Assembly (NCBI GenBank): GCA_025059045.1
Contig: JANXEA010000002.1
Coordinates: 10,798-74,797 of the forward strand
From: Candidatus Bathyarchaeota archaeon
GTDB lineage: Archaea > Thermoproteota > Bathyarchaeia > Bathyarchaeales > DTEX01
Reading direction: 5' to 3'
Length of the DNA stretch: 64,000 nucleotides
The notes under the pieces were generated by a model. That model was not told the DNA's origin. It ran no database searches and worked only from the letters and a program-made list of their open reading frames with translations. Positions within the stretch are counted from its first letter, which is position 1, and each line of letters opens with the position of its first letter. The translations under genes and the position numbers were made by a program. This document shows positions 6,734 through 49,319 of the stretch, piece after piece.

Positions 6734-6739
6734 AATTGG

Positions 6740-11356: not shown

Positions 11357-11377
11357 GAGTCAAGCCTGGCGAGACAT

Positions 11378-13693: not shown

Positions 13694-13798
13694 ATCTGCC
13701 TTAACGCTTCGCAGCCTAAATATAAATTTAATGTTTCAAAAAATATTCTCAATTCAATTCGCAAATTTCCATAATTTTATAGTCAGTCAAAGCGTTTT

Positions 13799-15316: not shown

Positions 15317-15436
15317 ATTACCATCTCCAACTAGCCTATACAGTTTTGCTGAAGCAGAGCAGGATAAAAAAATATTTTTAAGAAGAGGACATTAGCGCAC
15401 ATAGGGATTCATCAGATTTGCTGATATTACTTTTTC

Positions 15437-16534
15437 TCAATCCCCTACGTCCGGCTCCCTTTCTGTGGCCTGCACTTCCATAAGCCACTCTTCGTTAAAC
15501 CAGCAGTGTTTGATGCTTCTTCGCAAGTATGTATACACTATATGGATAATGCCATCGTCTGTTTGTAGAAGTTGAGGATAAGAGAATTGTCCAAAAGCAT
15601 CTTCCAAAACTCTCTCATATGGCCATGTTTGCCCCTCATCAATGGAGAAAGCAACGTTAAGGGGAGTGCGCCCTATATGAGTGTCATTGAATGCTAGAAC
15701 AAAATGACCATTTTTAAGCCTTATCAGGGAAATGCCGCTGTTAGGATTTGGGAATTGGGTCTCAACTGCTTCACTCCATGTCCTTCCACGGTCATTCGAT
15801 ATGGATTTCCAGATAAATCCCCCAATATTGAGGAGTTCCTTCTTCTCAGCGATCTTTCCTGTTGAGTCTTGGACTGTTCTCCGAACTGTTGCCTTCAAAA
15901 AGCCGTGCAATGGATGGCTTCGAGTCCTCATATACATTAATAGAGAACCATCAGAGAGTTGAACAATGTTTCCCTGAACGCATCCAGTAACACTTGTTAC
16001 TGGGCCGTAGGTGTCCCAGACTTCTCCCATGTCCTCAGATATCATAACATAACAACAATTAGGCTTCGCTTTACTATCATATATTGGGAGGACTATGTCG
16101 CCGTTATCGAGGACTATAGGGTTATTTCTCACCCATAAGCCTCTCCTAGGACGGAAGATTTTATCTTCACTCCAAGTATTCCCGCCGTCAAAACTTTTTT
16201 TGTACATTATTATGCTTGAGGGTCCGCCTTGATCGTGGCTGACATACCAAAGCCACACAACACCATTTGGATCTACGAATAGCACTGGGTTTTGATCTGA
16301 TTTTCCAGGGACGTCTGCCAAAACCTCAGGATCACTCCAAGAATCACCGGAAAACCTTGAGCAGTAAATAGCAACATCACTAGCTCCCTCCCTCGATCCG
16401 GCGAACCACGCTGCAAGCAAATCTCCGCCTGGCAGTTGAGCGATTGTAGGAGCGTGGCAATCAGGGAACCTTCCCTCCTCAAATATGAGCTCTGAACCAA
16501 ATATTTGGGCCATACTCCCACCTAAAGAAGACAA
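15437..16534 (-). CDS. BNR/Asp-box repeat sialidase-like (GH33-like) beta-propeller protein
   Basis: 365 aa with Asp-box repeats SFDGGNTWS, SNDRGRTWS and SIDEGQTWP. No signal peptide. Confidence 0.65.
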   Translation of the reverse strand: MSSLGGSMAQIFGSELIFEEGRFPDCHAPTIAQLPGGDLLAAWFAGSREGASDVAIYCSRFSGDSWSDPEVLADVPGKSDQNPVLFVDPNGVVWLWYVSHDQGGPSSIIMYKKSFDGGNTWSEDKIFRPRRGLWVRNNPIVLDNGDIVLPIYDSKAKPNCCYVMISEDMGEVWDTYGPVTSVTGCVQGNIVQLSDGSLLMYMRTRSHPLHGFLKATVRRTVQDSTGKIAEKKELLNIGGFIWKSISNDRGRTWSEAVETQFPNPNSGISLIRLKNGHFVLAFNDTHIGRTPLNVAFSIDEGQTWPYERVLEDAFGQFSYPQLLQTDDGIIHIVYTYLRRSIKHCWFNEEWLMEVQATEREPDVGD

Positions 16535-19859: not shown

Positions 19860-22800
19860 ATGAGATACCATGCCTTAATTCTAGCATTATTCATCTTATT
19901 AGCATCATCAATTTCGCATGTAGGAGCTACAGCTGTAAAAGAGAGGGTAATGGGTCAAAGTACGGAGAGAGCTACTCTAGATTGGAGTTACCGGGGATAT
20001 TCCGTTGCAAGCTTACTGGCTGAGCGGGAAGGTTTCGCCAAGGATGTCACTGGCGGGTTAAACGGTAGAGTATACCGTGTGACTTCGCTCTCCCCAGCGA
20101 GTGGTCCTGGAACGTTAAGAGAGGCAGTTTCATTGCCTGAGCCATTATGGATTGTGTTCGATGTGAATGGAACCATAGACCTTGGAAACGAGGAACCTTT
20201 GTACATTAGATCAAATAAGACGATTGATGGAAGAGGCGCAGAAATCGTGATTGCAAGGAAGGGGGTTAGAATAGATTTTCAACAGAACATCATAATAACT
20301 AACATACGCTTCGAGAATGTCGGCGGCGATATTATAGAGATCAGAGGAGAATCCACACTGATCTGGATCCATCACTGCGACTTCATGAATGGGAACGATG
20401 GAGCAATAGACATAGTGAAGACCGCTGGACCAAGTGTAGATGTAACGGTCTCATGGTGTAGATTCTGGTGTCACAAGAAAACTATGCTCATAGGTGGAGA
20501 TGCATGGGAACAAGAGGTGAAGAATGTTCGCTTAACACTTCACCATAACTACTTCTTCATCACCGATCAGCGCAACCCAAGGATCAGATGGGGAAAAGTT
20601 GACGCGTATAACAATTATCTTTATGGCTGGCGCGATTATGGAATGGGCGCAAGCATGTACGGAGAGCTACTTGTTGAGGCAAATGTCTTCGAGGCATTAG
20701 AAAACAAGGAAGCGGTGGTGGCTCCTGTGGGCTCAGGAGGCGAGCTGGACTATCCTGGATATGTGAGGCTGAAGGATAATCTATTCCTTAATGGGGCGAT
20801 AGCTAAAGTTGGCCCGGGATACTCCGGACTTGTCTTTAGACGCGAGGACTATTACACCGCCAAGATAGAACCTGCAACAGAAGGATTAAAACTTAAGATA
20901 ATGGCGCAGGCGGGAACAAATATACCATTCCAGCCGAGAATAATGGTTAACCTCAAATCTGTGGATGATCCATACCCATCAAAACATTACCTAAACAGGA
21001 CAGATATCTATGTCGGAAACACCACGGCAAGGTACTACTGCATCATCGAGCCCTATAGAACCCCCTCAGATAAGATTGTCAGATGTGATTGGGACTTCGG
21101 CGACGGAACAAAACTAACGGTAACAAATGTAGTCCTCTTCCATGATCCATCCGTCACCTACACTTACAAGCAACCAGGAACATACACAATAAAAGTTACA
21201 CTAACGACTGCGGATGGAAGAACAATAACACTAAGTGAAGAGGATGTAATATTGCCTGCAGAGACGGGTGGTGCTGGTGGTACAGGTGGAACTGGTGGGG
21301 CAGGTGGAACTGGTGGTACGGGAGGAACTGGTGGTACAGGTGGAACAGGCGGGGTAGGTGGAATAACCGCGCCCAGCGATGCTCCATGGCCAATGGGACA
21401 GCGTGATCTTTCCCGCTCAGGTTATACGAGCGATCTAGGCCCGGCGACTAATGAGTTATTATGGGTGTTCGATACGGGCACGTATGGCGAGCCTATTAGA
21501 AGCGGCGTCTCAATTGCATATGGAATAGTGTACTTCGGCTCCGACAACGATTGCGTATACGCCGTAAATGCGACTACTGGACAGATGATATGGAGGTTTA
21601 ACGTTACAGAGTTCACAGGCACCGGAAAAGCGGACGTGAGAAGCACACCAGCAATCTCCGATGGTAGAGTATACTTTGGCAGCAGAAACGGCGTCTTCTT
21701 CTGCCTAGACGCCTACACAGGCGCCGTCAAATGGTACTATATTCCAGTCGATGAGGACGGAAAGAATGTCTCTATCTTCCGCAGCTCTCCAGCGGTCGTA
21801 GAGGGCAGAGTTCTCTTCGGAACTAGGGAAAAATCCGGAAAGCTTTACTGCCTAAACGCGACGAATGGTCAAGTGATCTGGAGGTTCGCCGCGGAGAATG
21901 AGATAGACTCAAGCCCAACAGTAGTAAAGGATAGGGTGTACTTTGGCTCCGACGACGACTACGTCTACTGTGTAAACCTGTATACTGGCGAATTAATTTG
22001 GAAGACGAATGTAGGCAGCAATGTGATCAGGGCGCCAGTATACTACAATGGGCTATTATTCGCCGCGTCTCAGGGATTAGAAAGAATATTCGCCCTTAAC
22101 GCAACCACAGGCGAAAACATTAGAAACTACACGATCATGGGGTATCCGAAAGGCGGCGTCGCGGTTGGAAGCGGCAAGCTGGTTATTACAGGGGTAACAA
22201 GCGGAACCGTCTACTGCTTCGACATTGAGACGGGTCAGCGGCTTTGGAGTTACGGAACGGTTGGACTTGAAGCCTACGCAGCCATACCTGTAATCGCACG
22301 GGACATAGTCTACTTAATCGCTCCAGACGCTGCAATTCATGCGGTAGACCTGAACACCGGCCAAATGATATGGAAATATGTTACAGATCCTGCCCAGTAT
22401 TGGAGATGTGATGAGGCTTATGGTGCTATTGCGTATGGCTGCCTGTTCATCGGCGCCGGGGACGGCAAGCTATACTGCTTTGGAAGACCGCCAAACCTTC
22501 CGATGAAATTGACTGCAAAAGTAATATGGGCGAATGGCTCAGCGGTCATAGGTGCAAAAGCCACGATATCAAACGGGACGAACACGTTTACCCAGAACAT
22601 AAGCGCATCAGGGGAAGCAACATTCAGTATCTTCAGGGGCAACTACACGGTGAAAGTAGAATATGGATCCATCCCACTCTATGTGGGCACAATCGATCTT
22701 CAGCGTGACACTACAATAACAGTAACGCAATATCCAGAATTATTACAGTATGCAATCCAACTTCAAAGCCAAATAGCTAGTCTCCAAAATCAGGTCAATA

Positions 22801-22949
22801 ATCTTCAGAGCCAGGTCAATCAATTACAATCTGACAAGTCAAGTCTCCAATCACAAGCATCCAATAGCCTCTACATGGGTCTAGGAGGCGGTGCGGGAGC
22901 CGGCCTAATAATCGGCATAATCATCGCCTACATCTTGAAGAAAAGATGA
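19860..22949 (+). CDS. Secreted multidomain protein: PL1 pectate lyase, PKD-like domain, Gly/Thr linker, PQQ-like beta-propeller, coiled-coil stalk, C-terminal TM anchor
   Basis: 1029 aa with a signal peptide.
- PL1 motifs: SNKTIDGRG, LIWIHHCDFMNGNDGAIDI, RNPRIRWG.
- PKD-like: CDWDFGDGTKLT...YTYKQPGTYTIKVTLT.
- Repeated A-x-D/N-x-x-TG-x-x-x-W blades (VYAVNATTGQMIWRF, LYCLNATNGQVIWRF, VYCFDIETGQRLWSY and others).
- Coiled coil: QLQSQIASLQNQVNNLQSQVNQLQSDKSSLQSQ.
- Tail: LYMGLGGGAGAGLIIGIIIAYILKKR. Confidence 0.85.
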   Translation: MRYHALILALFILLASSISHVGATAVKERVMGQSTERATLDWSYRGYSVASLLAEREGFAKDVTGGLNGRVYRVTSLSPASGPGTLREAVSLPEPLWIVFDVNGTIDLGNEEPLYIRSNKTIDGRGAEIVIARKGVRIDFQQNIIITNIRFENVGGDIIEIRGESTLIWIHHCDFMNGNDGAIDIVKTAGPSVDVTVSWCRFWCHKKTMLIGGDAWEQEVKNVRLTLHHNYFFITDQRNPRIRWGKVDAYNNYLYGWRDYGMGASMYGELLVEANVFEALENKEAVVAPVGSGGELDYPGYVRLKDNLFLNGAIAKVGPGYSGLVFRREDYYTAKIEPATEGLKLKIMAQAGTNIPFQPRIMVNLKSVDDPYPSKHYLNRTDIYVGNTTARYYCIIEPYRTPSDKIVRCDWDFGDGTKLTVTNVVLFHDPSVTYTYKQPGTYTIKVTLTTADGRTITLSEEDVILPAETGGAGGTGGTGGAGGTGGTGGTGGTGGTGGVGGITAPSDAPWPMGQRDLSRSGYTSDLGPATNELLWVFDTGTYGEPIRSGVSIAYGIVYFGSDNDCVYAVNATTGQMIWRFNVTEFTGTGKADVRSTPAISDGRVYFGSRNGVFFCLDAYTGAVKWYYIPVDEDGKNVSIFRSSPAVVEGRVLFGTREKSGKLYCLNATNGQVIWRFAAENEIDSSPTVVKDRVYFGSDDDYVYCVNLYTGELIWKTNVGSNVIRAPVYYNGLLFAASQGLERIFALNATTGENIRNYTIMGYPKGGVAVGSGKLVITGVTSGTVYCFDIETGQRLWSYGTVGLEAYAAIPVIARDIVYLIAPDAAIHAVDLNTGQMIWKYVTDPAQYWRCDEAYGAIAYGCLFIGAGDGKLYCFGRPPNLPMKLTAKVIWANGSAVIGAKATISNGTNTFTQNISASGEATFSIFRGNYTVKVEYGSIPLYVGTIDLQRDTTITVTQYPELLQYAIQLQSQIASLQNQVNNLQSQVNQLQSDKSSLQSQASNSLYMGLGGGAGAGLIIGIIIAYILKKR
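21267..21362 (+). repeat. In-frame tandem 9-bp (GGT GGN ACN) repeat encoding a (GGT/GGA)n linker
   Basis: 96 bp reading ggtggtgct ggtggtaca ggtggaact and so on. It encodes GGAGGTGGTGGAGGTGGTGGTGGTGGTGGVGG between the PKD-like domain and the propeller. Confidence 0.9.
22404..22480 (+). repeat. 77-bp exact DNA repeat, copy 1 (inside the propeller of ORF 19860)
   Basis: agatgtgatgaggcttatggtgctattgcgtatggctgcctgttcatcggcgccggggacggcaagctatactgctt is base-for-base identical to 24223-24299. It encodes RCDEAYGAIAYGCLFIGAGDGKLYCF. Confidence 0.9.
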
Positions 22950-23064: not shown

Positions 23065-24684
23065 TTGAGAGCGAAGCCGAAAACTGGCTTGAGAAAAACA
23101 TCGACTCTAATGATGGCATTCGCCGTCTTTTCAATCATGCTCTCTGCCACACTTCCGATTGTCAGGGCATCAGCAAGCTCCAGTGGCACATATTACGCTT
23201 GGCCTATGGCAGGATATAATCTGCAACGAACCGGATATACGGATGAGGCGGGGCCGAAAACAAATAATACGTTATGGATATTTGACACGGGAAGCGTCGG
23301 TCAAGGAATAAGATGTGGTGTTGCTGTTGCATATGGGATCGTCCTCTTCGGATCAGATGACGATAACATCTACGCTGTTAACGCCTCGACCGGGACGCTG
23401 ATCTGGAAATTTACAGCCACGGGGTCCACGCCAGATATGAGAAGCACTCCGGCTGTGGCTGATGGAAAAGCATACTTCGGCTCAAGAAATGGGACACTAT
23501 TCTGCGTAGATGTCTTTACAGGCGCGCTGATCTGGAAGTTCGTGGTGCCGCCGACACCTGGGACAACATATATTCCCATCATGCGTAGCTCCCCGGCAGT
23601 GGCTGATGGAATGGTTGTAACGGGAGTGAAAGGTAGGGGATTCTACTGCTTAAATGCGACAACCGGGGCCGTCATATGGAACTTCACTACTGGAGATGAG
23701 GCAGACGTCAGTCCAGCCATAGCTGATGGAAAGGTATACTTTGGGTCAGATGATGATCAAGCTTATTGCCTAGACCTGAAAACCGGAGCTCTACTCTGGA
23801 ATAGGACCTTAAATAGTAATGTGCTGCGCATAGTAACCTACTATCGAGGGCTGGTTTTCGCTTCTGTGCAGGCGGCTCCTGGAGTAGCTGACGGCATAGT
23901 TTATGCCCTTAACGCGACAACGGGTGAGGTTGTAAGAAATTACACGTTAATTAATGGTGGGAACTTGAGAGGCGGCGTCGCAGTTGCAGGCGACAAACTC
24001 GTTGTATCCGGGAGCCATAATGGCATAGTATACTGCTTTGACATCGAAACTGGGCGACTGATTTGGAACTACTCCCTGGGCGTAGTAGGGGCCTGGTATA
24101 ATATACCGGCAATAGCCAAAGACACCGTCTATATCATAGGTAGGGACGCGATTATCCATGCGATAGACCTAGGCACTGGACAGGCTATCTGGAAGTATCA
24201 GACAGACGTGTTCCATGCGACCAGATGTGATGAGGCTTATGGTGCTATTGCGTATGGCTGCCTGTTCATCGGCGCCGGGGACGGCAAGCTATACTGCTTC
24301 GGAGCTCCCCGCAACGATATCTACTTAGAGATGCTTAGATACATATCTCAAATCTCGCAACTACAATCCAACATAAGCAGCCTATTGAGTGAGAGAAGTA
24401 CCCTACAAAGCCAGATTAATACTCTACAGGGTCAAGTGTCTAGCCTCCGGAACAGCGTGAATCAGCTGCAAGGACAAGTTACAAATCTTCAGAACCAAGT
24501 TAGTCAGTTACAGTCAGAGAAGGCAAGCCTCCAGAGTCAGGTCGATAAATTGCAGACTGACAAGATCAATCTCCAGAATCAGGCGACAAATAATCTTTAC
24601 ATGGGTTTAGGCGGTGGAGCAGCGGTTGGCTTGGTAATCGGAGTAGCCATACCCTCATTTTTAAGAAGAAATAGATCCAGTTAA
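23065..24684 (+). CDS. Secreted PQQ-like beta-propeller protein with long coiled-coil stalk and C-terminal TM anchor (paralog of the C-terminal half of ORF 19860)
   Basis: 539 aa with a signal peptide (TTG start). It has the same blade repeats (IYAVNASTGTLIWKF, FYCLNATTGAVIWNF, VYCFDIETGRLIWNY, IHAIDLGTGQAIWKY). It also has a ~90-aa Q/L/S heptad region and the tail LYMGLGGGAAVGLVIGVAIPSFLRRNRSS. Confidence 0.85.
   Translation: MRAKPKTGLRKTSTLMMAFAVFSIMLSATLPIVRASASSSGTYYAWPMAGYNLQRTGYTDEAGPKTNNTLWIFDTGSVGQGIRCGVAVAYGIVLFGSDDDNIYAVNASTGTLIWKFTATGSTPDMRSTPAVADGKAYFGSRNGTLFCVDVFTGALIWKFVVPPTPGTTYIPIMRSSPAVADGMVVTGVKGRGFYCLNATTGAVIWNFTTGDEADVSPAIADGKVYFGSDDDQAYCLDLKTGALLWNRTLNSNVLRIVTYYRGLVFASVQAAPGVADGIVYALNATTGEVVRNYTLINGGNLRGGVAVAGDKLVVSGSHNGIVYCFDIETGRLIWNYSLGVVGAWYNIPAIAKDTVYIIGRDAIIHAIDLGTGQAIWKYQTDVFHATRCDEAYGAIAYGCLFIGAGDGKLYCFGAPRNDIYLEMLRYISQISQLQSNISSLLSERSTLQSQINTLQGQVSSLRNSVNQLQGQVTNLQNQVSQLQSEKASLQSQVDKLQTDKINLQNQATNNLYMGLGGGAAVGLVIGVAIPSFLRRNRSS
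24223..24299 (+). repeat. 77-bp exact DNA repeat, copy 2 (inside ORF 23065)
   Basis: Identical to 22404-22480, whereas the flanking paralogous sequence is clearly diverged. Confidence 0.9.
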
Positions 24685-26099: not shown

Positions 26100-28163
26100 A
26101 TGAGCGAGGAAAGAATACATGCAAGGGTTTCCCCGATAGAGATCTTGGTGCTCATACTTCTGGCGTGGGTCTTCTTTTCTGTAGGCTACATTACAAGAAC
26201 TTTCTCACCAGCTAAATACTGGGTTGTAGACGGGATGTTCGTGCCATACATCTATGTGCTGCTCATCCTTGGGTTGATCGGTAAGCGTGGAATAAGAGGC
26301 AGAGGTGTTAGTAAAGAATTCGCGGTCTCCTTAGTCTTTGTATTAGCCATATTGACCGGAAAGTTTTTCTTCTTCGCGGGGTCGCCGGATGCCAATTTCA
26401 TAGACGTGATTGCTGGAACATACAGCAGCTGCATTGTAGCCCCCATCTTTCCATCAGGCGCTGCAGACTATGTTCGGCAACTACTGCCAGCGTGGCTGGC
26501 CCCACATTACGCAGAAGATGTCGCTAGCTACTATCGAGGAGGCGGCGGGCAGAACTGGTCTGTTCTGATAGGCCCAATAATCTCTTGGACGCTTCTGCTA
26601 ATCTCCGTCGTGCTAGTAACATGGCCCATGCTATTCCTAATACTTGGTCCATATTGGCATGACACGGAGAGGATACAGTTTCCTATGGCGCTGCCAGCGG
26701 TGTACCTCACTAATAACACATTTCCAGTTTCGGAGCATGATAATGCTGAATGGCTGTCAATCTTCAATCTTGCCAGTGCAAGAAACAAGGCTTTCTGGGC
26801 GGCTTTCTTAATCGGGTTGGTCCTTAATGTACCGTTCATAATCTCACAGGTTGCGCCACAGGTTCCACTCGGAGCGGTGGTCGGCGGAGGATACGGAACA
26901 TATCCAATCAACCTTGGCCCATACTTTAGCGGTATGCTTCCATCAGCTCATCTTTCGGGCCAGATCGTCGTATACCTAATTCTCCTATACGCTATCCTAC
27001 CATTAGACATTTCAGCTTCAATAGCTATCGTGGGAATGTTCTTCAGTCTAATCTACAGACCTCTCGTTGTAAGTTCAGGAATAGTCAGAGGCACGGATCC
27101 CGGTCAAGTCTGGCCCATTCCACATCTGGAGTTTAGGGTGGGCTCTTACATTGGTCTTGGGCTAATAGCATTCTGGGCTACTAGAGACAGATGGATAAAG
27201 GCTTTCAAGTCACTTAGCAGGGACTTCCAAGTCGACGGCGTCTCAATGAGGGCGGGAATGCTACTAATGTTTGCAGGCGTAATTATGATGCTGGGGATAC
27301 TGACAGCGGCGGGAGGAAATCTCTTCATGCAGATAATATGGTTCCTCCTCTTCACCCTTATAAACGTCGGATGCGCATACATATGGGCCAACTCGATATG
27401 GCTTGGTGGGGACTGCCATGGATACATGAGCTGGAGACTTGGACATTACATTGGCTCGAGCATCGGCGTATGGTCTGCTTCGGCGCCCCAAATGAACCAG
27501 GCTCTGGCGGTCTACAGTCTCTCATGCTCAAGCATGGGCCACTGCACCGGCGCATACCAGTCGAATAGCCCAATAGCCCCGCCCTTCATGGCAATAGCAT
27601 ACGGATATGCACGTGGCACTAACGCAAACATTAGGAAAGTCTTCCTCTACACAATAGTGCCCGTCATAGCGCTGGTTCCATTCGCATTGGTATTCAATAC
27701 ATATGTTAACAGCCACGCTGGAATAAGTAACCTTGGAGAATACAGCGGCAGCATTAGCTGGCTGGGAACGATTAGGGCTGTCCTCGACTGGGGCAACAGA
27801 AGCCTATCCTACGCGACAGGCGTAATGCCGTTCAGTCAATATTGGATAGCAACAATCATAGCGGCCGTGATAGTAATAGTGGTCGCAGCGCTCCGCTCAT
27901 TCCTTCCATGGTTCTTCCTACATCCAGTTGGCTTTGCAATCGGCTTCGCTGGGTTAGGAGGCTGGAACTTCTGGCTCAACGCCGTTGTAGGCATAGCCTT
28001 AAGGATTTCGCTAAGCAAGATTCTAGGTCCAAAGAGAACGATGGAATATCTAGTCCCGATTTTAGCTGGTCTGGCAATAGGCTTAGGTGCATTATACCTG
28101 ATCGTCGGCATCTATGTCCTCTGCACAAGTTCAATCCCGAATCTGTTGACGCTTTGGAAGTGA
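26100..28163 (+). CDS. Polytopic membrane protein, module B gene 1 (paralog of ORF 2410)
   Basis: A 687-aa hydrophobic ORF with motifs RGVSKEFAVSLVF and HDTERIQFPMALPAV at positions equivalent to ORF 2410. A T7 tract follows the stop. Confidence 0.8.
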   Translation: MSEERIHARVSPIEILVLILLAWVFFSVGYITRTFSPAKYWVVDGMFVPYIYVLLILGLIGKRGIRGRGVSKEFAVSLVFVLAILTGKFFFFAGSPDANFIDVIAGTYSSCIVAPIFPSGAADYVRQLLPAWLAPHYAEDVASYYRGGGGQNWSVLIGPIISWTLLLISVVLVTWPMLFLILGPYWHDTERIQFPMALPAVYLTNNTFPVSEHDNAEWLSIFNLASARNKAFWAAFLIGLVLNVPFIISQVAPQVPLGAVVGGGYGTYPINLGPYFSGMLPSAHLSGQIVVYLILLYAILPLDISASIAIVGMFFSLIYRPLVVSSGIVRGTDPGQVWPIPHLEFRVGSYIGLGLIAFWATRDRWIKAFKSLSRDFQVDGVSMRAGMLLMFAGVIMMLGILTAAGGNLFMQIIWFLLFTLINVGCAYIWANSIWLGGDCHGYMSWRLGHYIGSSIGVWSASAPQMNQALAVYSLSCSSMGHCTGAYQSNSPIAPPFMAIAYGYARGTNANIRKVFLYTIVPVIALVPFALVFNTYVNSHAGISNLGEYSGSISWLGTIRAVLDWGNRSLSYATGVMPFSQYWIATIIAAVIVIVVAALRSFLPWFFLHPVGFAIGFAGLGGWNFWLNAVVGIALRISLSKILGPKRTMEYLVPILAGLAIGLGALYLIVGIYVLCTSSIPNLLTLWK

Positions 28164-28183
28164 TCAATCGCTTCCACCCATTA

Positions 28184-28190
28184 TTTTTTT
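28184..28190 (+). terminator. Oligo-T tract after module B gene 1
   Basis: ccattaTTTTTTTaat lies 21 nt after the stop. It mirrors the T7 tract after module A gene 1. Confidence 0.35.
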
Positions 28191-28308
28191 AATGCCTCAA
28201 CCGTTTGAGGGTGTCCAATGAAGTTGAATAGCAAAATTCTTAAGATCCTGCAAATGATTATACCGAAGGAAGCCGCCTAGTTCCAACATACGGCTAGAGA
28301 GTGGATGA

Positions 28309-30210
28309 ATGAAGCCGAAGACGGGGCTAAGTTGGCGGATCATTCTGGCGATGGTAACATCGATCTTCCTCTTCATTCCAGTCAACATCTACTCATACTT
28401 TATTACTGGTGTTGTTCAAGGGTCCGTGGCGGTCTTCTTCATAACGCTGGTATTCTCGGAGATTGTCAGGCTTACTGGCTCAAATCTTTCAAGACAGGAG
28501 GTTCTCATACTATACTACGCAGCAGCTTGGGGAGGCACCGCGATGCCAATATACTACAACATAATTTATAGAACATTTTTTGTTAACTCGCCGCTTATCA
28601 GCTCCTACTCCATCTCCGGGAGACCGCTTATCGAGTATATTCCCACATGGCTTGTTCCTCTTCCCGGATCATACTCTGCCCGCACATTCTTTCAACCAGC
28701 TTTCTTAACGCCGCTTATCGTATGGTTCGTTTGGAGCGTCCTAATGCTGGCCATTACAATCTTCCTCTCAATAATGGCCTCCCACATCTACGTTGAGAGA
28801 CTGAATTATCCATTCCCATACGCTGTTGTAGATGCTTCGATAGCGACCTTTCTAGGCGAGAGACCGAGAGAATATGTGAAGTACTTTATTCCCGCGTTCA
28901 CCGTCGGCGTCATTTTCGGTTCGATAGCCTATCTGCCCCTTTCATTCGGCGGCGTGCTCATACCAATACCATATCTTGACCTAACAGGCATTATAGAGGA
29001 GATGCTTCCTGGAGCCCTCTTAGGGCTAGTCACCGTCTTATCATCATATTTTGGGGGGCTAATTGTACCAGTTAACCAGACAATCCCAATGCTCATCTCC
29101 TCCATCTTAATATGGATTATCATGAATTCGCTCTTCATAACAACCTTTCCTGGGGCAGCTCCAGAATGGGTTAGAGAATACTCGAAGGGAATGGGGCTTA
29201 TTGCCGTCCAGAACCGATCATATCTTCGGATATGGTTTGCACCGCAGATAGGCTTCACAATCGCCGCCTCAGCCTTCCTCATTCTCTTCGAGGCTAGGAA
29301 GCCGATAGTTGAAGCCCTAAAGGAGATGTTCCATGCAGGGGGCTCCGAGCAGCCTGGAGTAATGGTTGGGCTACCATCGCTTAGAGTGTCATTTCTTTTA
29401 TGGTTGTTATTTGGCTGCTTATCTGTAGTCTATTTCCACATTCTTGTACCCGAAGTCAGTCTCCTAATACCCATCCTCTACGTGTTCCTTTTCGGTTTCT
29501 TCATAGCAATGGTTGTAACCGCGTTTAGAGGTGAGACGGGTTTTTCTGTTCCTGGGCTTCCAGGATGGACTTGGCACACACTAATATACTTCTCACCATA
29601 TCAAGGATACGCCGGCTTCATATTAGAGCCTCCGGCAATAGACTCTGGCGGGCCAGCGTACTTTTCCCAGCAGGTTAAGGCATCGTCAAACGTGGGTGCA
29701 AGGCCCAGAGACCTTCTCATAGTATGGGTGCTTGGATACTTCCTTTCCCAGTTATCCGGTCTCATCTCGCTGGATTTCTTCTGGAGAATAGCGCCAATCC
29801 CGTCATCTGCATACCCCTTCACAGTCTACAGCGCGCTTAGCTCCGCATATAACGATGCGATGATTGTGTCTAGACAATTGAAAATAACCTTAGAGAGCAT
29901 AGGATTGCCGGCGCTAGCCCTGTTCGTGGCCTTGATAATCGGGGATCAGATCTCAAGGGTAATAGGCCTTTCTTTTCCGATTGTGGGCTTAGTTATGGGT
30001 TTATACCTTCCTCCCCACTCCGTTATCCCACTCTTCATCGGATCCCTGGTCAGCCGATACCTAGCCCCTAAACTTTTCGGCGGGGCGGAAAGATGGCGGT
30101 GTATAATGGGCTATATTGTTGCAGGAGAGCTTTCAGGAGAAGGTTTAATGCTTATGCTTAACGTTGTCCTAGCTCTCATGTATAAGTCGGCGTGGATGTG
30201 GCCATGGTGA
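28309..30210 (+). CDS. Polytopic membrane protein, module B gene 2 (paralog of ORF 4790)
   Basis: 633 aa. It aligns with ORF 4790 along its length (SRQEVLILYYAAAWGG, ERLNYPFPYAVVDASIATF, PGALLGLVTVLSSYFGGLIVP versus PGAVIGISTDISSYLLGFIVP). Its 3' end overlaps the next gene by 19 nt. Confidence 0.8.
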   Translation: MKPKTGLSWRIILAMVTSIFLFIPVNIYSYFITGVVQGSVAVFFITLVFSEIVRLTGSNLSRQEVLILYYAAAWGGTAMPIYYNIIYRTFFVNSPLISSYSISGRPLIEYIPTWLVPLPGSYSARTFFQPAFLTPLIVWFVWSVLMLAITIFLSIMASHIYVERLNYPFPYAVVDASIATFLGERPREYVKYFIPAFTVGVIFGSIAYLPLSFGGVLIPIPYLDLTGIIEEMLPGALLGLVTVLSSYFGGLIVPVNQTIPMLISSILIWIIMNSLFITTFPGAAPEWVREYSKGMGLIAVQNRSYLRIWFAPQIGFTIAASAFLILFEARKPIVEALKEMFHAGGSEQPGVMVGLPSLRVSFLLWLLFGCLSVVYFHILVPEVSLLIPILYVFLFGFFIAMVVTAFRGETGFSVPGLPGWTWHTLIYFSPYQGYAGFILEPPAIDSGGPAYFSQQVKASSNVGARPRDLLIVWVLGYFLSQLSGLISLDFFWRIAPIPSSAYPFTVYSALSSAYNDAMIVSRQLKITLESIGLPALALFVALIIGDQISRVIGLSFPIVGLVMGLYLPPHSVIPLFIGSLVSRYLAPKLFGGAERWRCIMGYIVAGELSGEGLMLMLNVVLALMYKSAWMWPW

Positions 30211-33200
30211 AGCATGCTCTAGATTGTGGAAAGATCTCGGCGTTGGCACTAGCGGTAACCTTCATTCTCTCCTGGAGCCCGGTTTGTTGCGGAGCAATCG
30301 AGGCGGGATCACGCATAGGCGGTGGTGCAGCATGGGTAATCGTCGATGACATAAGCCTTGATAATATTAAGTCGCATGTCAAATTCTTCTCTTCTCTGGG
30401 GACAAGGGTTACAGGTTATGAGGGATGCAGGCTTGCATCTGAGTATATAGAGTTGTTTTTCAGAGATCTAGGGCTCCAAGTGCTGGTTCACGATTACTGG
30501 ACGCCGATCCCAAAAGATGAGGGCTCATACATCATTGTTAATGATGGTGCTAATGCAGGTTCAAATTTCACTGCATACTCTCTCTGGCCTAACGGTGGGC
30601 TCTCATGCATCTCAGGAGGGTTCAAGGGTAAGATAATTTATTGTGGAGAAGGTACGCTCGAAGAGATGAGCGGCCTAGACGTCAATGGCTCTATAATATT
30701 ACTCGACTTTAACTCTGGAAGAAACTGGATCAATGCTGCTAAGCTGGGAGCGAAAGCAGTAATCTTCATTGAGCCTTCATTCACCACGAAATATGAGGCG
30801 CTTGCTAAGGGTTCACTTTCTCCACTTGAGTTTCCGCGACTATATGTTAAAAGGGATGTGGGGCTGAAACTTAAGGAGGTGGCTGACAGCAATGGCACGG
30901 TCACAGTACATGTAAGAATGCGATGGGTGAATGCTGAGGCAAGAAATATTGTCGGAATCCTGGAGGGTGACAGCAAAGAAGACGTTGTAATTTTCTCTGC
31001 CCATTATGACTCATGGAGCATAGTACCTGCTATTTCGCCATCATCTGAAGACTCCATAGGCATCTCCATCCTCCTTGAGATGGCAAGATACTTCAAGATG
31101 CACAAGCCCAGGGCAACAATATGGTTTGTTGCCTATTCAGGCCACTGGGAAGGAACCGTCGGAGCTGTAAAGTTCGTGGAGGATACTCTCTTGAGCTCCA
31201 ATAAGAGAATTTGGATCCAGCTGGGTCTAGATATTTCAAGCGAATCGCCAAAAATGGATTGTCTATATGTAAGTTCAGTCTACGGATCAATGGAGCCTAG
31301 CTATGCTTGGGGGGCTGGTGAAAGAAACACGATCTTCGCCCTAACGCAAACTTATGTGCAGAGATTTTACCCGCTAAGATCCTGGTTCCAGAGATTACTC
31401 GACGTGTCGATTAGAGACCTAAGATTAGAAAATTATGTTCCGGAAGATGTTAAGAAACTGGTTAATCTTGTCAATTTCGGCCTTACATATGAATCCAGAT
31501 TCGGCACCCAAGACGATTTCTACATGCTTGACACGGAACCAGCATTGTCGGCCTCGATGATGTCGGTTACATTAAAGACTCAGTATGGTAGGAGGATCTC
31601 TTGGCTCAGCCCACTTGACCAAGGTATAGACTGGACAAAGATTTGGCCACAGGTCATAACTGCCACGACACTGGCTCAAGGAATTGCTAACAGAAACTTT
31701 GATGTTGATCCTCCTTACGCCTACAGCGACGTCTCGCCTAAAAGATGGTCTCAGCTCCAATTTGGGCTGGCATCTATGGGTTATAGTACACTTTCGGGTA
31801 AGACTGTTGAATTCAGCAATTACACTGGCTGGTATGAGCCAGTGCCATGCTCCCTCGTTAGGCTGCAGATATATGAGAGCCAAGCCCTGAATGCATGGCC
31901 ATTCGCATACAGGTACACGATCAGCGGAGAGGATGGAGGATTCGTTTTTCATGGGCTGGTGCCCCTAGTCTCATGGCAGATCGATGCGTGGAAGTTTAAC
32001 CCTATAAGTGGGTCTGTCGAGTATGCTGTTGATCAGGGATTTTATGGCACCGCGCAGCAGGTTGCAGGCGGGCTCCGAACAACCGTGTTTCCTATCACGC
32101 CAAATGTAAGCGCGCTTGTTCCACTGTTCAAATGTAAGCATGTTACACTCTTCGATATGATTGACTATTTCGGCCTTACGGAGTTAATTGTGAGAGATTA
32201 TAGAAACCCAAACCACAGCTACCTGAACATGTACATATCTTCGGCGACGAGATTTGCCGCGCTTTCAGGAGGTATAGGCGTCTATGGTTTTGGATTAGGC
32301 ATCTACGCTACAGACTCAAAATCTTCACCAATCTTTTATGGCGCATTTATGGGGGCTGATGGGATAGCCAACATATACGTGAAGGAAGGAGAGAAGATAA
32401 CCGTCGCCTTTAACCCTAACTCAGATGCATACTCCTGGCCCACCATGCTAATGTCAAATAGCACGGCAGACAATCCCGAAGGAAATGGAATCACGGTCTC
32501 AGAGAATGTTGTGGTCACATTGACGGTTTACCGTGCTGCGTTGGATATGTACCGAATAGCCAAGAGCAGATATGAGAGCTTCGCCAAGTTCAATATTCGG
32601 GTAGCCTTTGCCGAGCAGATGCTTGAAAAAGCCCTCAAATATATAATTATGGCGAACAACTCATATTCGGCAAAGGATTATGAGGGCATATACGCCAATT
32701 CATACCGAGCCCTACAATACTCCTATAATGCCTACGCAAACGCCGCCATGCCCCTATACCATGAGGCTGCAAACTCTCTAATCTTCTTCTCCCTACTAAT
32801 CCTCCCATACTCCGTGCTTCTCGAAAAGATGATTATCCAGTTAAGATCATCTAAGAGGTTTATAGGGATCCTCGGCTTTGCACTCCTGACCTTCGGCATC
32901 TACTCAGCGGTTCACCCAGCGTTCTCAGTCATGACGAATTCACTGATGACCGTGATAAGCGTCGGCGTATTCATCCTGCTGGCTGCGATACTCGTTATAT
33001 TCCTAACCGAGCTGAAAGATCTGGTTGAAGCGGTCAGCGTGAGCCTCCTAGGTGAGCATATCTTCAAGACAGGTCGAGTATCAACGATAATGCATACTAT
33101 CACATACTCTGTTGAGAGTATGCGAAAAAGAAAGATGCTGTCAGCATTGGCCATGATAACCATAACATTTGTTACGGCTGCTATGACAGCTTTCACCTCA

Positions 33201-34784
33201 GCATCGCAGGGATATGCAACAGTTAAGGGGCAGAGCATCCTAAGCGCGCCGTATGATGGCGTGTTACTCAAGGTCATGTATGGGTTTCCGCCGGAGGAGA
33301 GAGGAAAAATATTTGACATAAACACGGTCAACTATTTGAAGTGGATCGCAGGCGACGACTATGAAATTTCGCCTAGGGTCTGGCTTTACCCACAAACCCA
33401 AAGCCCCGAGCTGATGCCAGTAGCGGAGATCGAAGCCTCTGGAAAAGGAGCAGTCCGGTCGCAACTCGTATTCCTAGGGCTGTCATCAAAAGAGCTGCAG
33501 CTAATATTCGGGGGATACATAAGCGGTAGCAGCATCTTTATAGGGAGATACGATTGTATAATGCCAAAGAGTCTAGCTGACCACTTAAAGATCAACGTTA
33601 AGGACTCTGTAACCATTAGGGGGCTGGACGCAAAGTTTACAGTGGTCGGGATAATGGATGTTCAGGGACAGGTGCTAGATTTTGATGGAAACCCCATCTT
33701 TCCAATAGACCCGGGCTTCTCAACCGATCTTTCCCTATCATCCACCCTATATCCGCAGACGATTCTTCCCTCACCAGTTTCGCCTGATCAGGTAGTTATA
33801 ATACCTTGGGAGACGGCATTGGAGCTAGGCGGCTTCATCTCGAGCATAGCGTTAACGCCGAAAACTGAGAGGTCTCTCCATGAACTTGAAGAGATAGCGG
33901 CCGATATTACCACCTGCACGAATCTATCCACCTATGTTGGCTATAATGGAGAATCATATGGCTTGCAGAGATTATTTGTCTTCCACTTTGCTGGATGGGA
34001 TGCAACTATAACTGTTCTTCTGGCATTGGCTCTGCTTTCACTGGTGAATTTTATGCTGGGAACATTGATCACAAGAAAAAGAGATGTTCATGTTTATTCG
34101 ACTATCGGACTGTCGCCGGGAGGGGTTATAGTTGTATTCATGACTGAAGGTGTCACATTAGCCTTCAGCGGAATACTTGCGGGTTACCTGATCGGCTATG
34201 CAATGAACACGGTCTTCATAAACATGAATCTGCTTCCTCCGGACTACACATTCAATTTCATGTCAATATCCGTGATGTTATCGATGATACTGATTATAGC
34301 GACTGTCCTATTGGCGTCGCTGTATCCCGCGCTTTTAGCATCCAAGATAGTTACGCCTTCGCTGGAGAGGAGATGGAAGATTGCTACAAAGCCTATGGGG
34401 GACGTATGGGAGGTTCCGATACCATTAAAGGTGGAGCATTTTGAGGCGTTGGGTGTACTAAGGTACCTGAGGGAGTACTATGAAGGAGCCGGAAGCGAAA
34501 AGACAGGCTTCCTCGTGCTCTCCGTCTCCGACATTAACATAAATGACCTGGAATTATCGGTCGACGTGATACTTAGTCCAGTCGAACAAGATATTACTCA
34601 GACGGCTGTCTTTAAAGCTAAGAAGGAGGAGGACAAGTATCAGTTTTTCATTATTTTGAGGCGGAAGACAGGAGATCCTAAAATGTGGCTTAATAGGACT
34701 AGGACATTCCTAGATGATGCCAGAAAACAGTTCCTGTTATGGAAAGGCCTCTTACCTGAGCAGAGAAGGAAATATGTATCATAG
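30192..34784 (+). CDS. Giant chimeric envelope protein, module B gene 3 (paralog of ORF 6740): PA/M28-like ectodomain, 3 TM, MacB/FtsX permease module, conserved C-terminal domain
   Basis: 1530 aa.
- GSIILLDFNSGRNWINAAKLGAKAVIF.
- RNIVGILEGDSKEDVVIFSAHYDSWSIVPAISPSSEDSIGISILLEMARYF.
- VESMRKRKMLSALAMITITFVTAAMTAF (~nt 33111).
- TRKRDVHVYSTIGLSPGGVIVVFMTEGVTLAFSGILAGYLIG.
- C-terminal domain VTPSLERRWKIATKPMGDVWEVPIPL (nt 34350 to the end). Confidence 0.85.
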   Translation: MDVAMVKHALDCGKISALALAVTFILSWSPVCCGAIEAGSRIGGGAAWVIVDDISLDNIKSHVKFFSSLGTRVTGYEGCRLASEYIELFFRDLGLQVLVHDYWTPIPKDEGSYIIVNDGANAGSNFTAYSLWPNGGLSCISGGFKGKIIYCGEGTLEEMSGLDVNGSIILLDFNSGRNWINAAKLGAKAVIFIEPSFTTKYEALAKGSLSPLEFPRLYVKRDVGLKLKEVADSNGTVTVHVRMRWVNAEARNIVGILEGDSKEDVVIFSAHYDSWSIVPAISPSSEDSIGISILLEMARYFKMHKPRATIWFVAYSGHWEGTVGAVKFVEDTLLSSNKRIWIQLGLDISSESPKMDCLYVSSVYGSMEPSYAWGAGERNTIFALTQTYVQRFYPLRSWFQRLLDVSIRDLRLENYVPEDVKKLVNLVNFGLTYESRFGTQDDFYMLDTEPALSASMMSVTLKTQYGRRISWLSPLDQGIDWTKIWPQVITATTLAQGIANRNFDVDPPYAYSDVSPKRWSQLQFGLASMGYSTLSGKTVEFSNYTGWYEPVPCSLVRLQIYESQALNAWPFAYRYTISGEDGGFVFHGLVPLVSWQIDAWKFNPISGSVEYAVDQGFYGTAQQVAGGLRTTVFPITPNVSALVPLFKCKHVTLFDMIDYFGLTELIVRDYRNPNHSYLNMYISSATRFAALSGGIGVYGFGLGIYATDSKSSPIFYGAFMGADGIANIYVKEGEKITVAFNPNSDAYSWPTMLMSNSTADNPEGNGITVSENVVVTLTVYRAALDMYRIAKSRYESFAKFNIRVAFAEQMLEKALKYIIMANNSYSAKDYEGIYANSYRALQYSYNAYANAAMPLYHEAANSLIFFSLLILPYSVLLEKMIIQLRSSKRFIGILGFALLTFGIYSAVHPAFSVMTNSLMTVISVGVFILLAAILVIFLTELKDLVEAVSVSLLGEHIFKTGRVSTIMHTITYSVESMRKRKMLSALAMITITFVTAAMTAFTSASQGYATVKGQSILSAPYDGVLLKVMYGFPPEERGKIFDINTVNYLKWIAGDDYEISPRVWLYPQTQSPELMPVAEIEASGKGAVRSQLVFLGLSSKELQLIFGGYISGSSIFIGRYDCIMPKSLADHLKINVKDSVTIRGLDAKFTVVGIMDVQGQVLDFDGNPIFPIDPGFSTDLSLSSTLYPQTILPSPVSPDQVVIIPWETALELGGFISSIALTPKTERSLHELEEIAADITTCTNLSTYVGYNGESYGLQRLFVFHFAGWDATITVLLALALLSLVNFMLGTLITRKRDVHVYSTIGLSPGGVIVVFMTEGVTLAFSGILAGYLIGYAMNTVFINMNLLPPDYTFNFMSISVMLSMILIIATVLLASLYPALLASKIVTPSLERRWKIATKPMGDVWEVPIPLKVEHFEALGVLRYLREYYEGAGSEKTGFLVLSVSDININDLELSVDVILSPVEQDITQTAVFKAKKEEDKYQFFIILRRKTGDPKMWLNRTRTFLDDARKQFLLWKGLLPEQRRKYVS

Positions 34785-44374: not shown

Positions 44375-45778
44375 TTATTGGTGCCAGTAGACCTCTATGC
44401 CCAAATAATTAGAAAGGGCTTCATAAATAGCTCTTGCCGTGTGTGACCTGTTTATGGCGACATGATGTTCAAAGCCATTTCTGCAGACATAACTTAATAG
44501 GGCTTGTAAATTTTTAACCTTAACCACCCCGAATGCGCCGAATGTTTCTGCTGGATCCGAGGTTATCTCGCCCTCGCCGATGTAGGCCTTTAACTTCCCG
44601 TTTACATCATCGGTTGTTAGTCTCGCAAATGTCATCGGGCCTTCCCGAACCCTTCCTATACACACCCCAAAAGCGTTTTCTATGCCTACAACTTTTCCAA
44701 TTATTTCTCCAAAGCCTATACTTTCTATTTGTAGCACGGATTTCGGCATGTTGCCGCAGTGGAAAATAATGCATCTGTCTTCTTCTTGCTCATAATTGTT
44801 ATTCCAGTCTACGATTGCGGAGGGTGTACCCGATGCCAGCTGTAGAATAAGCATTGATAATGTCCCCGTGATATCAACTTCACATGCTGCTGGGATCATC
44901 TTTTCACTCAGCATGCTCATCACTACACATGGCATAACCCCTAGGTTACGCTCCAGAGATGTCCAGCATTGAATGGCTACTGCTCTAATATCGTTCTTTC
45001 TTATCCATTCCTCGATGATCAAGTAGATCTTTGCAAGTGTATTCAGCTTAGATTCAGAGCAATGACTTAACTTTGCATAAGACTTAATCTCCTCAGCTTT
45101 TGCCTTGACTTTAGTGTCGGATGAGGGCAATTTGCCTACTCCTTCTATAATCTCTGATAAATCCAATGTTTCTACAGAAATTCCTAAGGACTCAAGAATT
45201 TTTTCTGAGAATCTCATAGTGTTGAAGGCAGAGGGCCTCGCCCCTATCGCTCCTAATCTAATATTTCGCAATCCCTTAACTACCTTACATACCATGGCGA
45301 ACCATTTTAGATCCTCTCTGAAAGTCTTTTCCTCGGGATCTACTGTATGCAGAGATGTCAGAGAGAACGGAATCTTGTACTGGACTAGGTTATTGCAAAC
45401 TGAGATCTTGCCGCAGAAGCTGTCCCCCCTTGAAGAAGGGTCAAGCGATGTTAATCTGTCTCTGAAAGCCTGAACCAGTATCGGGACTCTTAGCCCACTA
45501 AGCCTTATCGTATTAACTATTGCCTTTTCATCTCCGAAATTTGGTAACGAAACTATTATGCCATCAATCCTTTCCTCATTCTTCTTAAATATCTCGGCAC
45601 ATCTCTTTGCATCTTCCCATGAACCTACTACTCCAAGCCTGGTCTCATCTGGGGATGGGCAGACAACATCAAAACCCTCCTCTGCTAAAACCTTTATCAT
45701 CCTTTCCCTTCCCTGAGCTGCTAACTCCTCTGAGAAGAATTCTCTATGACCTACTATCAAACCGAAAGTTGTACTCAT
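44375..45778 (-). CDS. L-fucose/L-arabinose isomerase-family sugar isomerase (COG2407-like)
   Basis: 467 aa. Size and N-terminal layout (FGLIVGHREFFSEELAAQGRERMIKVLAEEGFDVVCP) match this family as remembered. It is the last gene of the kinase/transketolase operon. Confidence 0.45.
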   Translation of the reverse strand: MSTTFGLIVGHREFFSEELAAQGRERMIKVLAEEGFDVVCPSPDETRLGVVGSWEDAKRCAEIFKKNEERIDGIIVSLPNFGDEKAIVNTIRLSGLRVPILVQAFRDRLTSLDPSSRGDSFCGKISVCNNLVQYKIPFSLTSLHTVDPEEKTFREDLKWFAMVCKVVKGLRNIRLGAIGARPSAFNTMRFSEKILESLGISVETLDLSEIIEGVGKLPSSDTKVKAKAEEIKSYAKLSHCSESKLNTLAKIYLIIEEWIRKNDIRAVAIQCWTSLERNLGVMPCVVMSMLSEKMIPAACEVDITGTLSMLILQLASGTPSAIVDWNNNYEQEEDRCIIFHCGNMPKSVLQIESIGFGEIIGKVVGIENAFGVCIGRVREGPMTFARLTTDDVNGKLKAYIGEGEITSDPAETFGAFGVVKVKNLQALLSYVCRNGFEHHVAINRSHTARAIYEALSNYLGIEVYWHQ

Positions 45779-45816
45779 CCCGCTCCCTCCACTTCTTCAA
45801 AAATTCCTTAATGCGC

Positions 45817-47289: not shown

Positions 47290-47300
47290 TTCTGAATCAC

Positions 47301-49043: not shown

Positions 49044-49319
49044 TTGCCATACCACGCCTCGAGAGTGAATCGATGCAATAATCAGATCTGGATTTCCATG
49101 GATATAGATAATAATTTTCACCTCTTAACAGGGAATTTTCAAAGTGTAAAGAGAAGCGTTGATGGATAATGTTGTGGATGCATAATAAGTTTATCTCTCC
49201 TGATGGCACACTATAACAAGAATATCATGCACCATGACGTAGGAGAATAGAAGGCTGAAAATGATAGTGTTAACCGAGAATTTAGGCCGAGGGATGGTTT
49301 AGTAAAATTTTTGGTTAGA

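Follow-up and report, generated by a model that had tools for sequence, protein, structure and literature searches.

The closest described relatives of the system reported here are the type VII ABC systems (MacB, LolCDE, FtsEX and YbbAP-TesA). According to excerpts of two publications, such systems act on envelope substrates and pair with hydrolases (PMC12646458, PMC7668044). We compared with them a three-gene module that occurs twice in a 64-kb stretch of DNA (hereafter the window) from contig JANXEA010000002.1 of a Candidatus Bathyarchaeota archaeon, as copy A (2410–11356) and copy B (26100–34784), both on the + strand. The genes are numbered 1 to 3 in each copy (A1–A3 and B1–B3). Genes 1 and 2 are predicted to encode polytopic permeases related to the OPT family, and gene 3 a giant protein in which a PA/M28-like ectodomain is fused to an FtsX/MacB-type membrane domain. 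Our favoured overall explanation, at a probability of roughly 60%, is an ancient paralogous three-gene envelope module that serves as a surface capture and import machine.

Gene 3 has the FtsX four-helix domain, the core domain between transmembrane helices 1 and 2 (TM1 and TM2) and the N-terminal amphipathic helix of the type VII proteins, and its membrane half matches their structures in Foldseek with E values of 8e-10 to 1e-6. FtsEX-EnvC and YbbAP-TesA are the closest known systems; gene 3 likewise couples the scaffold to an extracellular partner of hydrolase fold, and an adjacent ABC ATPase is encoded in some relatives of the module. In contrast to the type VII systems, the module has its head in cis, joined on by a stalk and three extra TM helices, and ends in an additional family-specific cytoplasmic C-terminal domain. 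Most archaeal loci, including the present window, are without an adjacent ATPase, and the ATPase, where present, comes with a separate mini-FtsX lacking the core domain. Furthermore, the module is linked to two OPT-like permeases, unlike any characterised type VII system.

Three other known systems resemble parts of the module. The head has the PA and M28 folds in common with the PA-domain M28 aminopeptidases and their non-catalytic relatives (BSAP, PaAP, GCPII, transferrin receptor and nicastrin/nicalin). Gene 2 is like the OPT oligopeptide transporter family (PF03169; TC 2.A.67) in the end-to-end profile match of A2, its size and its many TM segments; the match is very distant, however, and the genes here form an obligate-looking paralogue pair, with gene 1 of the DUF6785/DUF6784 type, linked to the FtsX giant. 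Like the polysaccharide utilisation loci of Bacteroidota, the module occurs in multiple diverged capture and transport copies per genome among glycoside hydrolases and sugar-processing enzymes. It is without SusC/SusD homology, and the likeness would be an analogy of organisation only.

Co-divergence and origin of the two copies

The preliminary description saw three open reading frames (ORFs) of copy B mirroring three of copy A, and all six were found where it placed them, in the same order and on the same strand (Table 1). NCBI proteins of Bathyarchaeia metagenome-assembled genomes (MAGs) match two of them at 100% (MCS7119623.1 for B3 and MCS7119613.1 for A3), and the public name of B3 is 'M28 family peptidase' (MCS7119623.1, MDW8048582.1). 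The four peptide pairs quoted as alignable between the copies were all recovered, at positions 179/166, 973/974, 1374/1387 and 1504/1511, with identities of 19/27, 8/13, 17/26 and 10/18. Long alignable blocks exist for the gene-3 pair (BLASTP E 3e-73 and 2e-50, 26–34% identity) and the gene-2 pair (E 6e-39, 27% identity end to end), whereas A1 and B1 align only marginally in pairwise comparison (E 0.003, 24% identity across 186 aa only). A1 matched zero Pfam families and scored E 1.2e-58 against the family-1 hidden Markov model (HMM) of superclade I, defined below, which was built without the window sequences. The homology of A1 and B1 is secure because profiles, not pairwise BLASTP, link them. 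The reported 19-nt overlap of B2 and B3 holds with the GTG start at 30192, and shrinks to 7 nt with the public ATG start at 30204.

The DNA of the copies is well diverged, with zero repeats of at least 30 nt joining A and B, in keeping with the early view that the duplication is old. Recent duplication or gene conversion between them was ruled out on the same ground. The GC content of both copies is like that of the remaining window.

For the phylogenetic comparison, 80 loci (L numbers below) were taken from species-representative genomes, and their ORFs were classed by family HMMs. The trees were built by neighbour-joining with a midpoint root and comprised 74, 61 and 49 members for the three families. 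In all three trees, the midpoint root divided the loci into essentially identical two superclades, with bootstrap values of 100, 80 and 86. Superclade I holds A and superclade II holds B for all three genes; a small basal clade (L023, L043, L047 and L053) changes sides in the gene-2 tree. Clade HMMs from which the window sequences had been left out placed all six proteins in the same superclades, with scores of 1128 vs 934 for A3, 1543 vs 1162 for B3, 186 vs 98 for A1 and 559 vs 216 for B1. The distance matrices of the gene pairs gave Mantel r values of 0.83, 0.77 and 0.78, which 0 of 2000 permutations reached. By the common deep split, Mantel correlations of 0.77–0.83 and the agreement of the clade HMMs, the component trees are congruent. 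Average-linkage clustering had also been tried for defining the clades; it separated one long branch and was uninformative, and the midpoint-rooted neighbour-joining split was used instead, together with the clade HMMs.

Because the same two deep clades recur in all three gene families, A and B are very probably ancient co-diverging paralogous modules, not products of a local duplication, and their three genes act as a unit. The closest relatives of B come from identical loci for each gene (L001, L026, L002 and L004), and A has an orthologous module at 59–61% identity on a hot-spring metagenome contig (L084). The A2 orthologue on this contig (160–2097, 61.5% identity) contains one in-frame stop and was called as two genes; the stop may be a sequencing error or mark a pseudogene.

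Neither copy is decaying. The ORFs are intact; of the family alignment columns with a conservation of 80% or more, the six window proteins retain 74–86%. For each copy there are full-length orthologues that are 55–66% identical. Nonsynonymous divergence (dN) from these orthologues is 0.25–0.40, and synonymous divergence (dS) is saturated in every comparison, including A vs B, leaving the NG86 ratio undefined. A dN of this size against a saturated dS implies a low ratio, and purifying selection on both copies is probable.

Judged from the trees, the A/B split is far older than the present genome. Duplication as such is ordinary biology; here it cannot be told apart from a later lateral acquisition of either copy, because the split predates the genome, the clades span lineages and other genomes hold up to six copies. 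The superclades each span several archaeal lineages, and that of A also takes in Armatimonadota. The proposal of an ancient duplication of the whole unit is upheld with qualifications: each gene has its homologue in the other copy, and neither of the outcomes named beforehand as refuting it, incongruent trees or decay of one copy, was observed, but the argument from gene order is weak and one copy may have been acquired laterally. The common 1-2-3 order is weak evidence for duplication because the genes come in at least 10 arrangements across the family. In superclade I, 3-2 and 1-3-2 predominate, and of its 36 members A alone is 1-2-3; the orthologous module on L084 is likewise 1-2-3.

This fluid order, the occurrence of the family in archaea and several bacterial phyla, and an A–B distance no smaller than the distance to homologues of other phyla would also fit the lateral arrival of one or both complete modules, not duplicated in the lineage, with a coincidental or convergent match in gene order. 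We regard this alternative as doubtful, although it survives best among those considered. Two Bathyarchaeia genomes hold both superclades, namely JAWCEH01 (L001 and L075 of superclade II; L023, L036, L040 and L053 of superclade I) and JAWAXL01 (L002 of II; L041 and L055 of I), and A and B each have their nearest relatives in Bathyarchaeia; old paralogues passed on vertically would thus be enough. Both copies also have the GC content of the surrounding window, and the congruent trees would still need a whole-unit duplication somewhere.

As ancient paralogues, A and B belong to a broad family. We found more than 340 gene-3 homologues of ~1500 aa in archaea (Bathyarchaeia, Thermoprotei, Thermofilaceae, Brockarchaeota, Caldarchaeales, Tardisphaera and the Asgard lineages Hodarchaeota and Hermodarchaeota) and bacteria (Armatimonadota, Planctomycetota and Victivallales), with up to six copies per genome (Bathyarchaeia JAWCEH01). 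Of the gene-3 loci, 35 have 5 kb or more on each side; within 5 kb of gene 3, 30 of these carry gene 2 and 21 carry gene 1. Additionally, an Armatimonadaceae MAG (L062, 9335–16801) contains a 2488-aa ORF with gene 3 (residues 184–1779) in frame with gene 2 (1841–2488), which may be a Rosetta-stone fusion or, alternatively, may be an assembly or stop-codon artefact of a high-GC MAG. The suggestion that the three genes form a unit is borne out by this linkage, the fusion, the congruent trees and the clade HMMs. In sequence terms, the module combines known parts in a new way, and it is widespread, misannotated and uncharacterised.

The gene-3 giant and the permease pair

AlphaFold2 models cover B3 in two halves (pLDDT 88.0 and 88.6), and the resulting domain boundaries are given in Table 1. 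The N-terminus places an anchor or signal ahead of the head. In Pfam, B3 matched FtsX (PF02687) with E 4.7e-11, and MacB_PCD (PF12704) just under the threshold (E 7e-6, score 26.9 vs a cut-off of 27). The best Foldseek matches of the membrane half were LolCDE (9rld_C, E 8e-10) and MacB (5lj7, E 2.6e-9), with LolC and LolE also found. The FtsX C-terminal helices and the extracytoplasmic core domain between TM1 and TM2 are both present, and an ENMRRRxLRT-type motif on the cytoplasmic amphipathic helix is conserved in the family and kept in A3 and B3. The C-terminal domain (~145 residues) is 39% identical between A3 and B3, vs 11–31% for the other domains. It gave 859 matches at E ≤ 1e-3 among 1.84 billion cluster representatives (50% identity clusters), and it is the extreme C-terminus in all 150 matches listed.

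The window encodes a third gene-3 paralogue, C3 (Table 1), which aligns with B3 residues 834–1420 (BLASTP E 9e-18). C3 keeps the stalk, the three TM helices, the core domain and the FtsX helices, and has a CarboxypepD_reg-like domain instead of the PA/M28 head. C3-like genes adjoin the module in seven loci (L001, L014, L023, L035, L038, L051 and L052), and C3 could be a heterodimer partner of gene 3. Bacterial gene-3 relatives of 1600–1900 aa (P0187, P0236 and P0237) show extra F5/8 type C (discoidin) domains, a Nicastrin Pfam match and a PqqD domain, which in P0237 is fused to the giant.

The head matched M28 (PF04389) with E 2.8e-12 over the first ~100 of 193 profile positions. Its best Foldseek match was 2ek8 (E 1e-23), with BSAP and PaAP, followed by GCPII and the transferrin receptor (~1e-19); nicalin was among the weak sequence matches, and one relative has a Nicastrin Pfam match. 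After alignment of B3 to the aminopeptidase 2ek8, the residues at the catalytic sites were counted over 74 family members. The M28 ligand numbering is that of the Aeromonas aminopeptidase, carried over through the 2ek8 alignment. The Glu-Glu pair of 2ek8 ('aEEnG') corresponds to Gly317-His318 in B3 ('sGHweG'). In the family, the position of the catalytic general-base Glu is Gly in 67/74 members and that of the adjacent zinc-ligand Glu is His in 69/74. The first His ligand varies (H in 43/74, Y in 21 and R in 7; Tyr in A3), and the last, C-terminal His ligand is lost, being replaced by Gly, Asp, Phe or another residue. The Asp of the H-x-D motif is invariant, the bridging Asp position is E or D in 59/74, and the second Asp ligand (Asp179-equivalent) is D or E in 63/74. 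The head has the alpha/beta fold of an active M28 enzyme, with a PA domain inserted, but not its catalytic Glu and its set of five co-catalytic zinc ligands (His, Asp, Glu, Asp and His).

Based on these substitutions, gene 3 is not a canonical aminopeptidase, and the label 'M28 peptidase' is unsupported. The pattern of the site resembles that of receptor-type pseudo-peptidases such as the transferrin receptor and nicastrin/nicalin, while an enzyme with altered chemistry is possible. A different conserved function is suggested because the Gly-His pair is nearly invariant.

B1 matched DUF6785 (PF20581; E 4.6e-20, 72.1 bits, cut-off 25) and DUF6784 (PF20580; E 3.7e-6, 27.5 bits, cut-off 26.4), and 25 of 31 gene-1 relatives match both. 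A2 scored above the gathering score of OPT (E 1.4e-8, 34.4 bits, cut-off 25.8), its residues 136–629 covering profile positions 105–616 of 623. B2 had zero Pfam matches by itself, and OPT was matched by 12 of 32 gene-2 relatives (best E 1.2e-17). A sequence search of the PDB found zero related solved structures for family 2. The two families are related to each other over 606 columns (hhalign probability 100%, E 8e-57). Their proteins have ~13–18 hydrophobic segments (~17 in B1), and they have in common an E-x-E-R-L-P-F-P motif, which may resemble the OPT motif L-x-F-P-S-G. By profile comparison, genes 1 and 2 are full-length paralogues within the OPT superfamily, and gene 2 is probably a distant homologue of the OPT family.

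Table 1. Positions of the module genes, the domains of B3 and other features in the window.
Feature	Positions	Strand	Description
A1	2410–4701	+	763 aa; copy-A counterpart of B1, highly diverged
T7 tract, copy A	4728–4734	+	27 nt past the A1 stop
A2	4790–6733	+	647 aa; OPT-like permease of copy A
A3	6740–11356	+	1538 aa; giant of copy A; MCS7119613.1 / MDW8048572.1
Glycan-degrading cluster	11378–16534		melibiase-like, arabinofuranosidase and BNR/sialidase-like
C3	16663–19713	+	1016 aa; third gene-3 paralogue, between the modules; Pfam, BLASTP
B1	26100–28163	+	687 aa; polytopic membrane protein, DUF6785/DUF6784 family, predicted OPT superfamily, paralogue of gene 2
T7 tract, copy B	28184–28190	+	21 nt past the B1 stop; probable conserved oligo-T terminator separating gene 1 from genes 2 and 3
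B2	28309–30210	+	633 aa; OPT-like polytopic membrane protein
B3	30192–34784	+	1530 aa (annotated as 1526 aa, start 30204); predicted fusion of PA/M28-like ectodomain and FtsX/MacB-type membrane domain
B3 residues 46–500	30327–31691	+	predicted extracellular PA and M28-like head, degenerate metal/catalytic site; Foldseek, 2ek8 alignment
B3 residues 501–855	31692–32756	+	predicted beta-rich extracellular domains, then long helical stalk; AlphaFold2 secondary structure
B3 residues 856–1010	32757–33221	+	three predicted TM helices, cytoplasmic amphipathic helix, FtsX TM1; AlphaFold2, consensus, hydropathy
B3 residues 1011–1386	33222–34349	+	MacB-like extracellular core domain, then FtsX TM2–TM4; Pfam, Foldseek
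B3 residues 1387–1530	34350–34781	+	family-specific cytoplasmic C-terminal alpha/beta domain; per-domain identity
Sugar cluster	44375–49121		fucose-isomerase-like, FGGY kinase and split transketolase; downstream of the modules

Probable transcription units, ATPase partners and genomic context

The T7 tracts noticed earlier behind gene 1 are present in both copies (Table 1). In 48 of 51 archaeal loci, whatever the gene order, a run of at least five T lies within 60 nt of the gene-1 stop (median ~20 nt); for comparison, such a run follows gene 2 in 38% and gene 3 in 16% of cases, and random windows contain one in 7%. Chance as the source of the T7 tracts was ruled out by these family-wide statistics. 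Across the archaeal loci L001–L076, the oligo-T lies 9–44 nt past the gene-1 stop, often with a C-rich run ahead of it. Oligo-T tracts are archaeal intrinsic terminators. Because a conserved tract of this kind ends it, gene 1 is probably a transcription unit of its own irrespective of gene order, and its expression level may differ from that of genes 2 and 3. The latter, which are adjacent or overlapping, are probably translationally coupled.

Four extra genes join the module in Armatimonadota (in loci with sufficient downstream flank), in two Asgard loci and in Tardisphaera. They encode a ~200-aa mini-FtsX without the core domain, one or two ABC ATPases, a PqqD-like protein and a ~325-aa protein with no assigned family. 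A locus (L083, 1353–13450) found, like L081 discussed below, by a family-1 profile search of a 5.8-billion-protein set (word prefilter; 9 matches) encodes on one strand the mini-FtsX, an ABC ATPase, gene 3 (1619 aa), gene 1 (DUF6785), a gene-2-like protein, a 298-aa ORF and PqqD. This seven-gene operon is the most complete version of the system among the loci examined. In MacB-type systems, the N-terminal amphipathic helix of FtsX contacts the ATPase. By analogy, we infer that an ATPase partner is used where available, because the amphipathic-helix motif is kept in A3 and B3 and the extended operons encode an ATPase. The sole ABC ATPase of the window (51155–52102) was rejected as a partner; it is of the DrrA/ABC-2 type and paired with an ABC-2 permease.

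Between copies A and B lie genes for melibiase-like, GH51-type arabinofuranosidase, BNR/sialidase-like and pectate-lyase/PQQ-propeller proteins, and a sugar cluster follows downstream (Table 1). The window looks like a region for plant-polysaccharide and pentose utilisation without a canonical sugar ABC transporter. A Pfam census of 142 flanking ORFs from more than 60 loci was led by ABC_tran (6), GFO_IDH_MocA (6), URO-D (5), AP_endonuc_2 (3), aldo-keto reductase (2) and GH130 (2), and also contained GH10 (1), with zero peptidase families among the 25 families listed. Genes of the GFO_IDH_MocA and URO-D-like types sit between the module genes in several loci. For the substrate, the family names (OPT, M28 and PqqD) suggest peptides, and the genomic context leans to carbohydrate-derived compounds.

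Taken literally, the annotation would make gene 3 an extracellular M28 aminopeptidase that is anchored in the membrane and trims proteins from detritus; the resulting oligopeptides would be imported by genes 1 and 2, a form of protein scavenging by Bathyarchaeia. The M28 and PA matches in Pfam, the fold of a PA-M28 aminopeptidase, best matched by 2ek8, BSAP and PaAP, the OPT match of gene 2, the peptide-binding PqqD-like protein of the extended operons and the public name of gene 3 all agree with it. It is nevertheless unlikely, given the Gly and His that stand in for the catalytic and adjacent Glu in 67 and 69 of the 74 members, the missing C-terminal His ligand and a first His kept in 43. 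The neighbours in the census are sugar and oxidoreductase enzymes, with zero peptidases among the 25 families listed, and the copies in the window flank glycan-degrading genes.

Two neighbouring genes between the modules encode PQQ-propeller/coiled-coil proteins (19860–22949 and 23065–24684), the first with pectate-lyase and PKD domains in addition. An 81-nt stretch (22404–22484 and 24223–24303) is 99% identical between them, and other repeat pairs are 71–84% identical. This looks like a duplication or local gene conversion much younger than the A/B modules. The pectate-lyase/PQQ gene also contains a 9-nt tandem repeat (21255–21372) with ~13 units of GGTGGNACN-like sequence, forming a Gly/Thr-rich linker.

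A candidate capture and import machine

In the favoured explanation, the head would bind, and possibly modify, an extracellular oligomeric nutrient, and the FtsX part would transmit a conformational change that moves or gates the head. ATP would drive this change where the mini-FtsX and ABC ATPase are co-encoded; in the present genome, the partner would be encoded elsewhere or be absent. The two OPT-like proteins, probably as a heteromer, would then carry the product across the membrane. Gene 1, ended by its oligo-T terminator, would be expressed as its own unit, and genes 2 and 3 would probably be translationally coupled. As a mechanism, capture followed by import is tentative, and we hold it to be somewhat less probable than not. 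A more far-reaching version is rather doubtful: a hybrid uptake machine in which a MacB-like mechanotransducer with a pseudo-peptidase head passes oligomers to a heteromeric OPT pair, in ATP-driven and ATPase-less forms, with the copies specialised for different substrates, as a counterpart of polysaccharide utilisation loci in archaea and Armatimonadota.

A role in envelope maintenance of the FtsEX, LolCDE or YbbAP type, in which the FtsX domain and an ATPase encoded elsewhere would mechanically activate or position the head, or pull a lipid or lipid-linked molecule out of the membrane, genes 1 and 2 being accessories and no nutrient being imported, could draw on several observations. The best structural matches are LolCDE, MacB, YbbAP and FtsEX, and excerpts on characterised type VII systems name envelope substrates and hydrolase partners (PMC12646458, PMC7668044). 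The C-terminal domain is weakly like the lipid- or ligand-binding Bet v 1/START folds, the nicalin match and the Nicastrin Pfam match on a relative recall pseudo-peptidase receptor domains, and an undecaprenyl-diphosphate synthase gene abuts B3. We consider this role quite improbable, as up to six copies per genome and two or three per window suit substrate diversification better than housekeeping, tight linkage and co-divergence tie the giant to two OPT-like permeases, genes for catabolic enzymes lie inside modules, and the carriers, archaea with proteinaceous envelopes and diderm bacteria, have no common envelope polymer.

Several points weigh against the favoured explanation. The trees on which the co-divergence rests are neighbour-joining trees of very divergent sequences with midpoint rooting. 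No cognate ABC ATPase was found in the 64-kb window or beside either copy, and an ABC ATPase lies 10 kb or less away in only 11 of 32 long-flank loci. To our knowledge, characterised type VII ABC systems do not import substrates, and coupling to OPT-like permeases is unprecedented. The C-terminal domain is only weakly like Bet v 1/START folds (E ~0.015, target TM-score ~0.5), and we found no publication on DUF6785, DUF6784 or the combination of M28/FtsX/OPT-like genes.

The three genes are also found apart, which counts in the same direction. In a Caldarchaeales-like clade (L006–L009, L013 and L027), gene 3 lies at ~9800–14600, with neither gene 1 nor gene 2 up to 10 kb away. Its divergent neighbour is always a GFO_IDH_MocA oxidoreductase gene, conserved ORFs of 339 and 296 aa follow gene 3, and the clade may represent a variant system with other partners. 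At L081 (5141–11953), two DUF6785/DUF6784 genes are without gene 3 nearby; their neighbours include genes of the sulfatase, epimerase, GFO_IDH_MocA and AP_endonuc_2 types. The permeases can thus occur as a pair without the giant.

Hundreds of proteins of ~1500 residues from Bathyarchaeia, other Thermoproteota, Asgard archaea, Armatimonadota and the PVC group are labelled 'M28 family peptidase' or 'FtsX-like permease'. By the comparisons made here, gene 3 belongs to a conserved system of three (up to seven) genes, and its peptidase site is non-canonical. Metabolic reconstructions of archaea from sediments and hot springs that count these genes as extracellular peptidases are probably wrong on this point. 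Copies A and B come from the two deepest clades of the family and form a natural pair for tests of substrate specialisation. If the module is indeed an uptake system, it would be the first MacB-type scaffold working with secondary-transporter-like permeases, and it would represent a major unrecognised route by which uncultured heterotrophic archaea take up organic matter.

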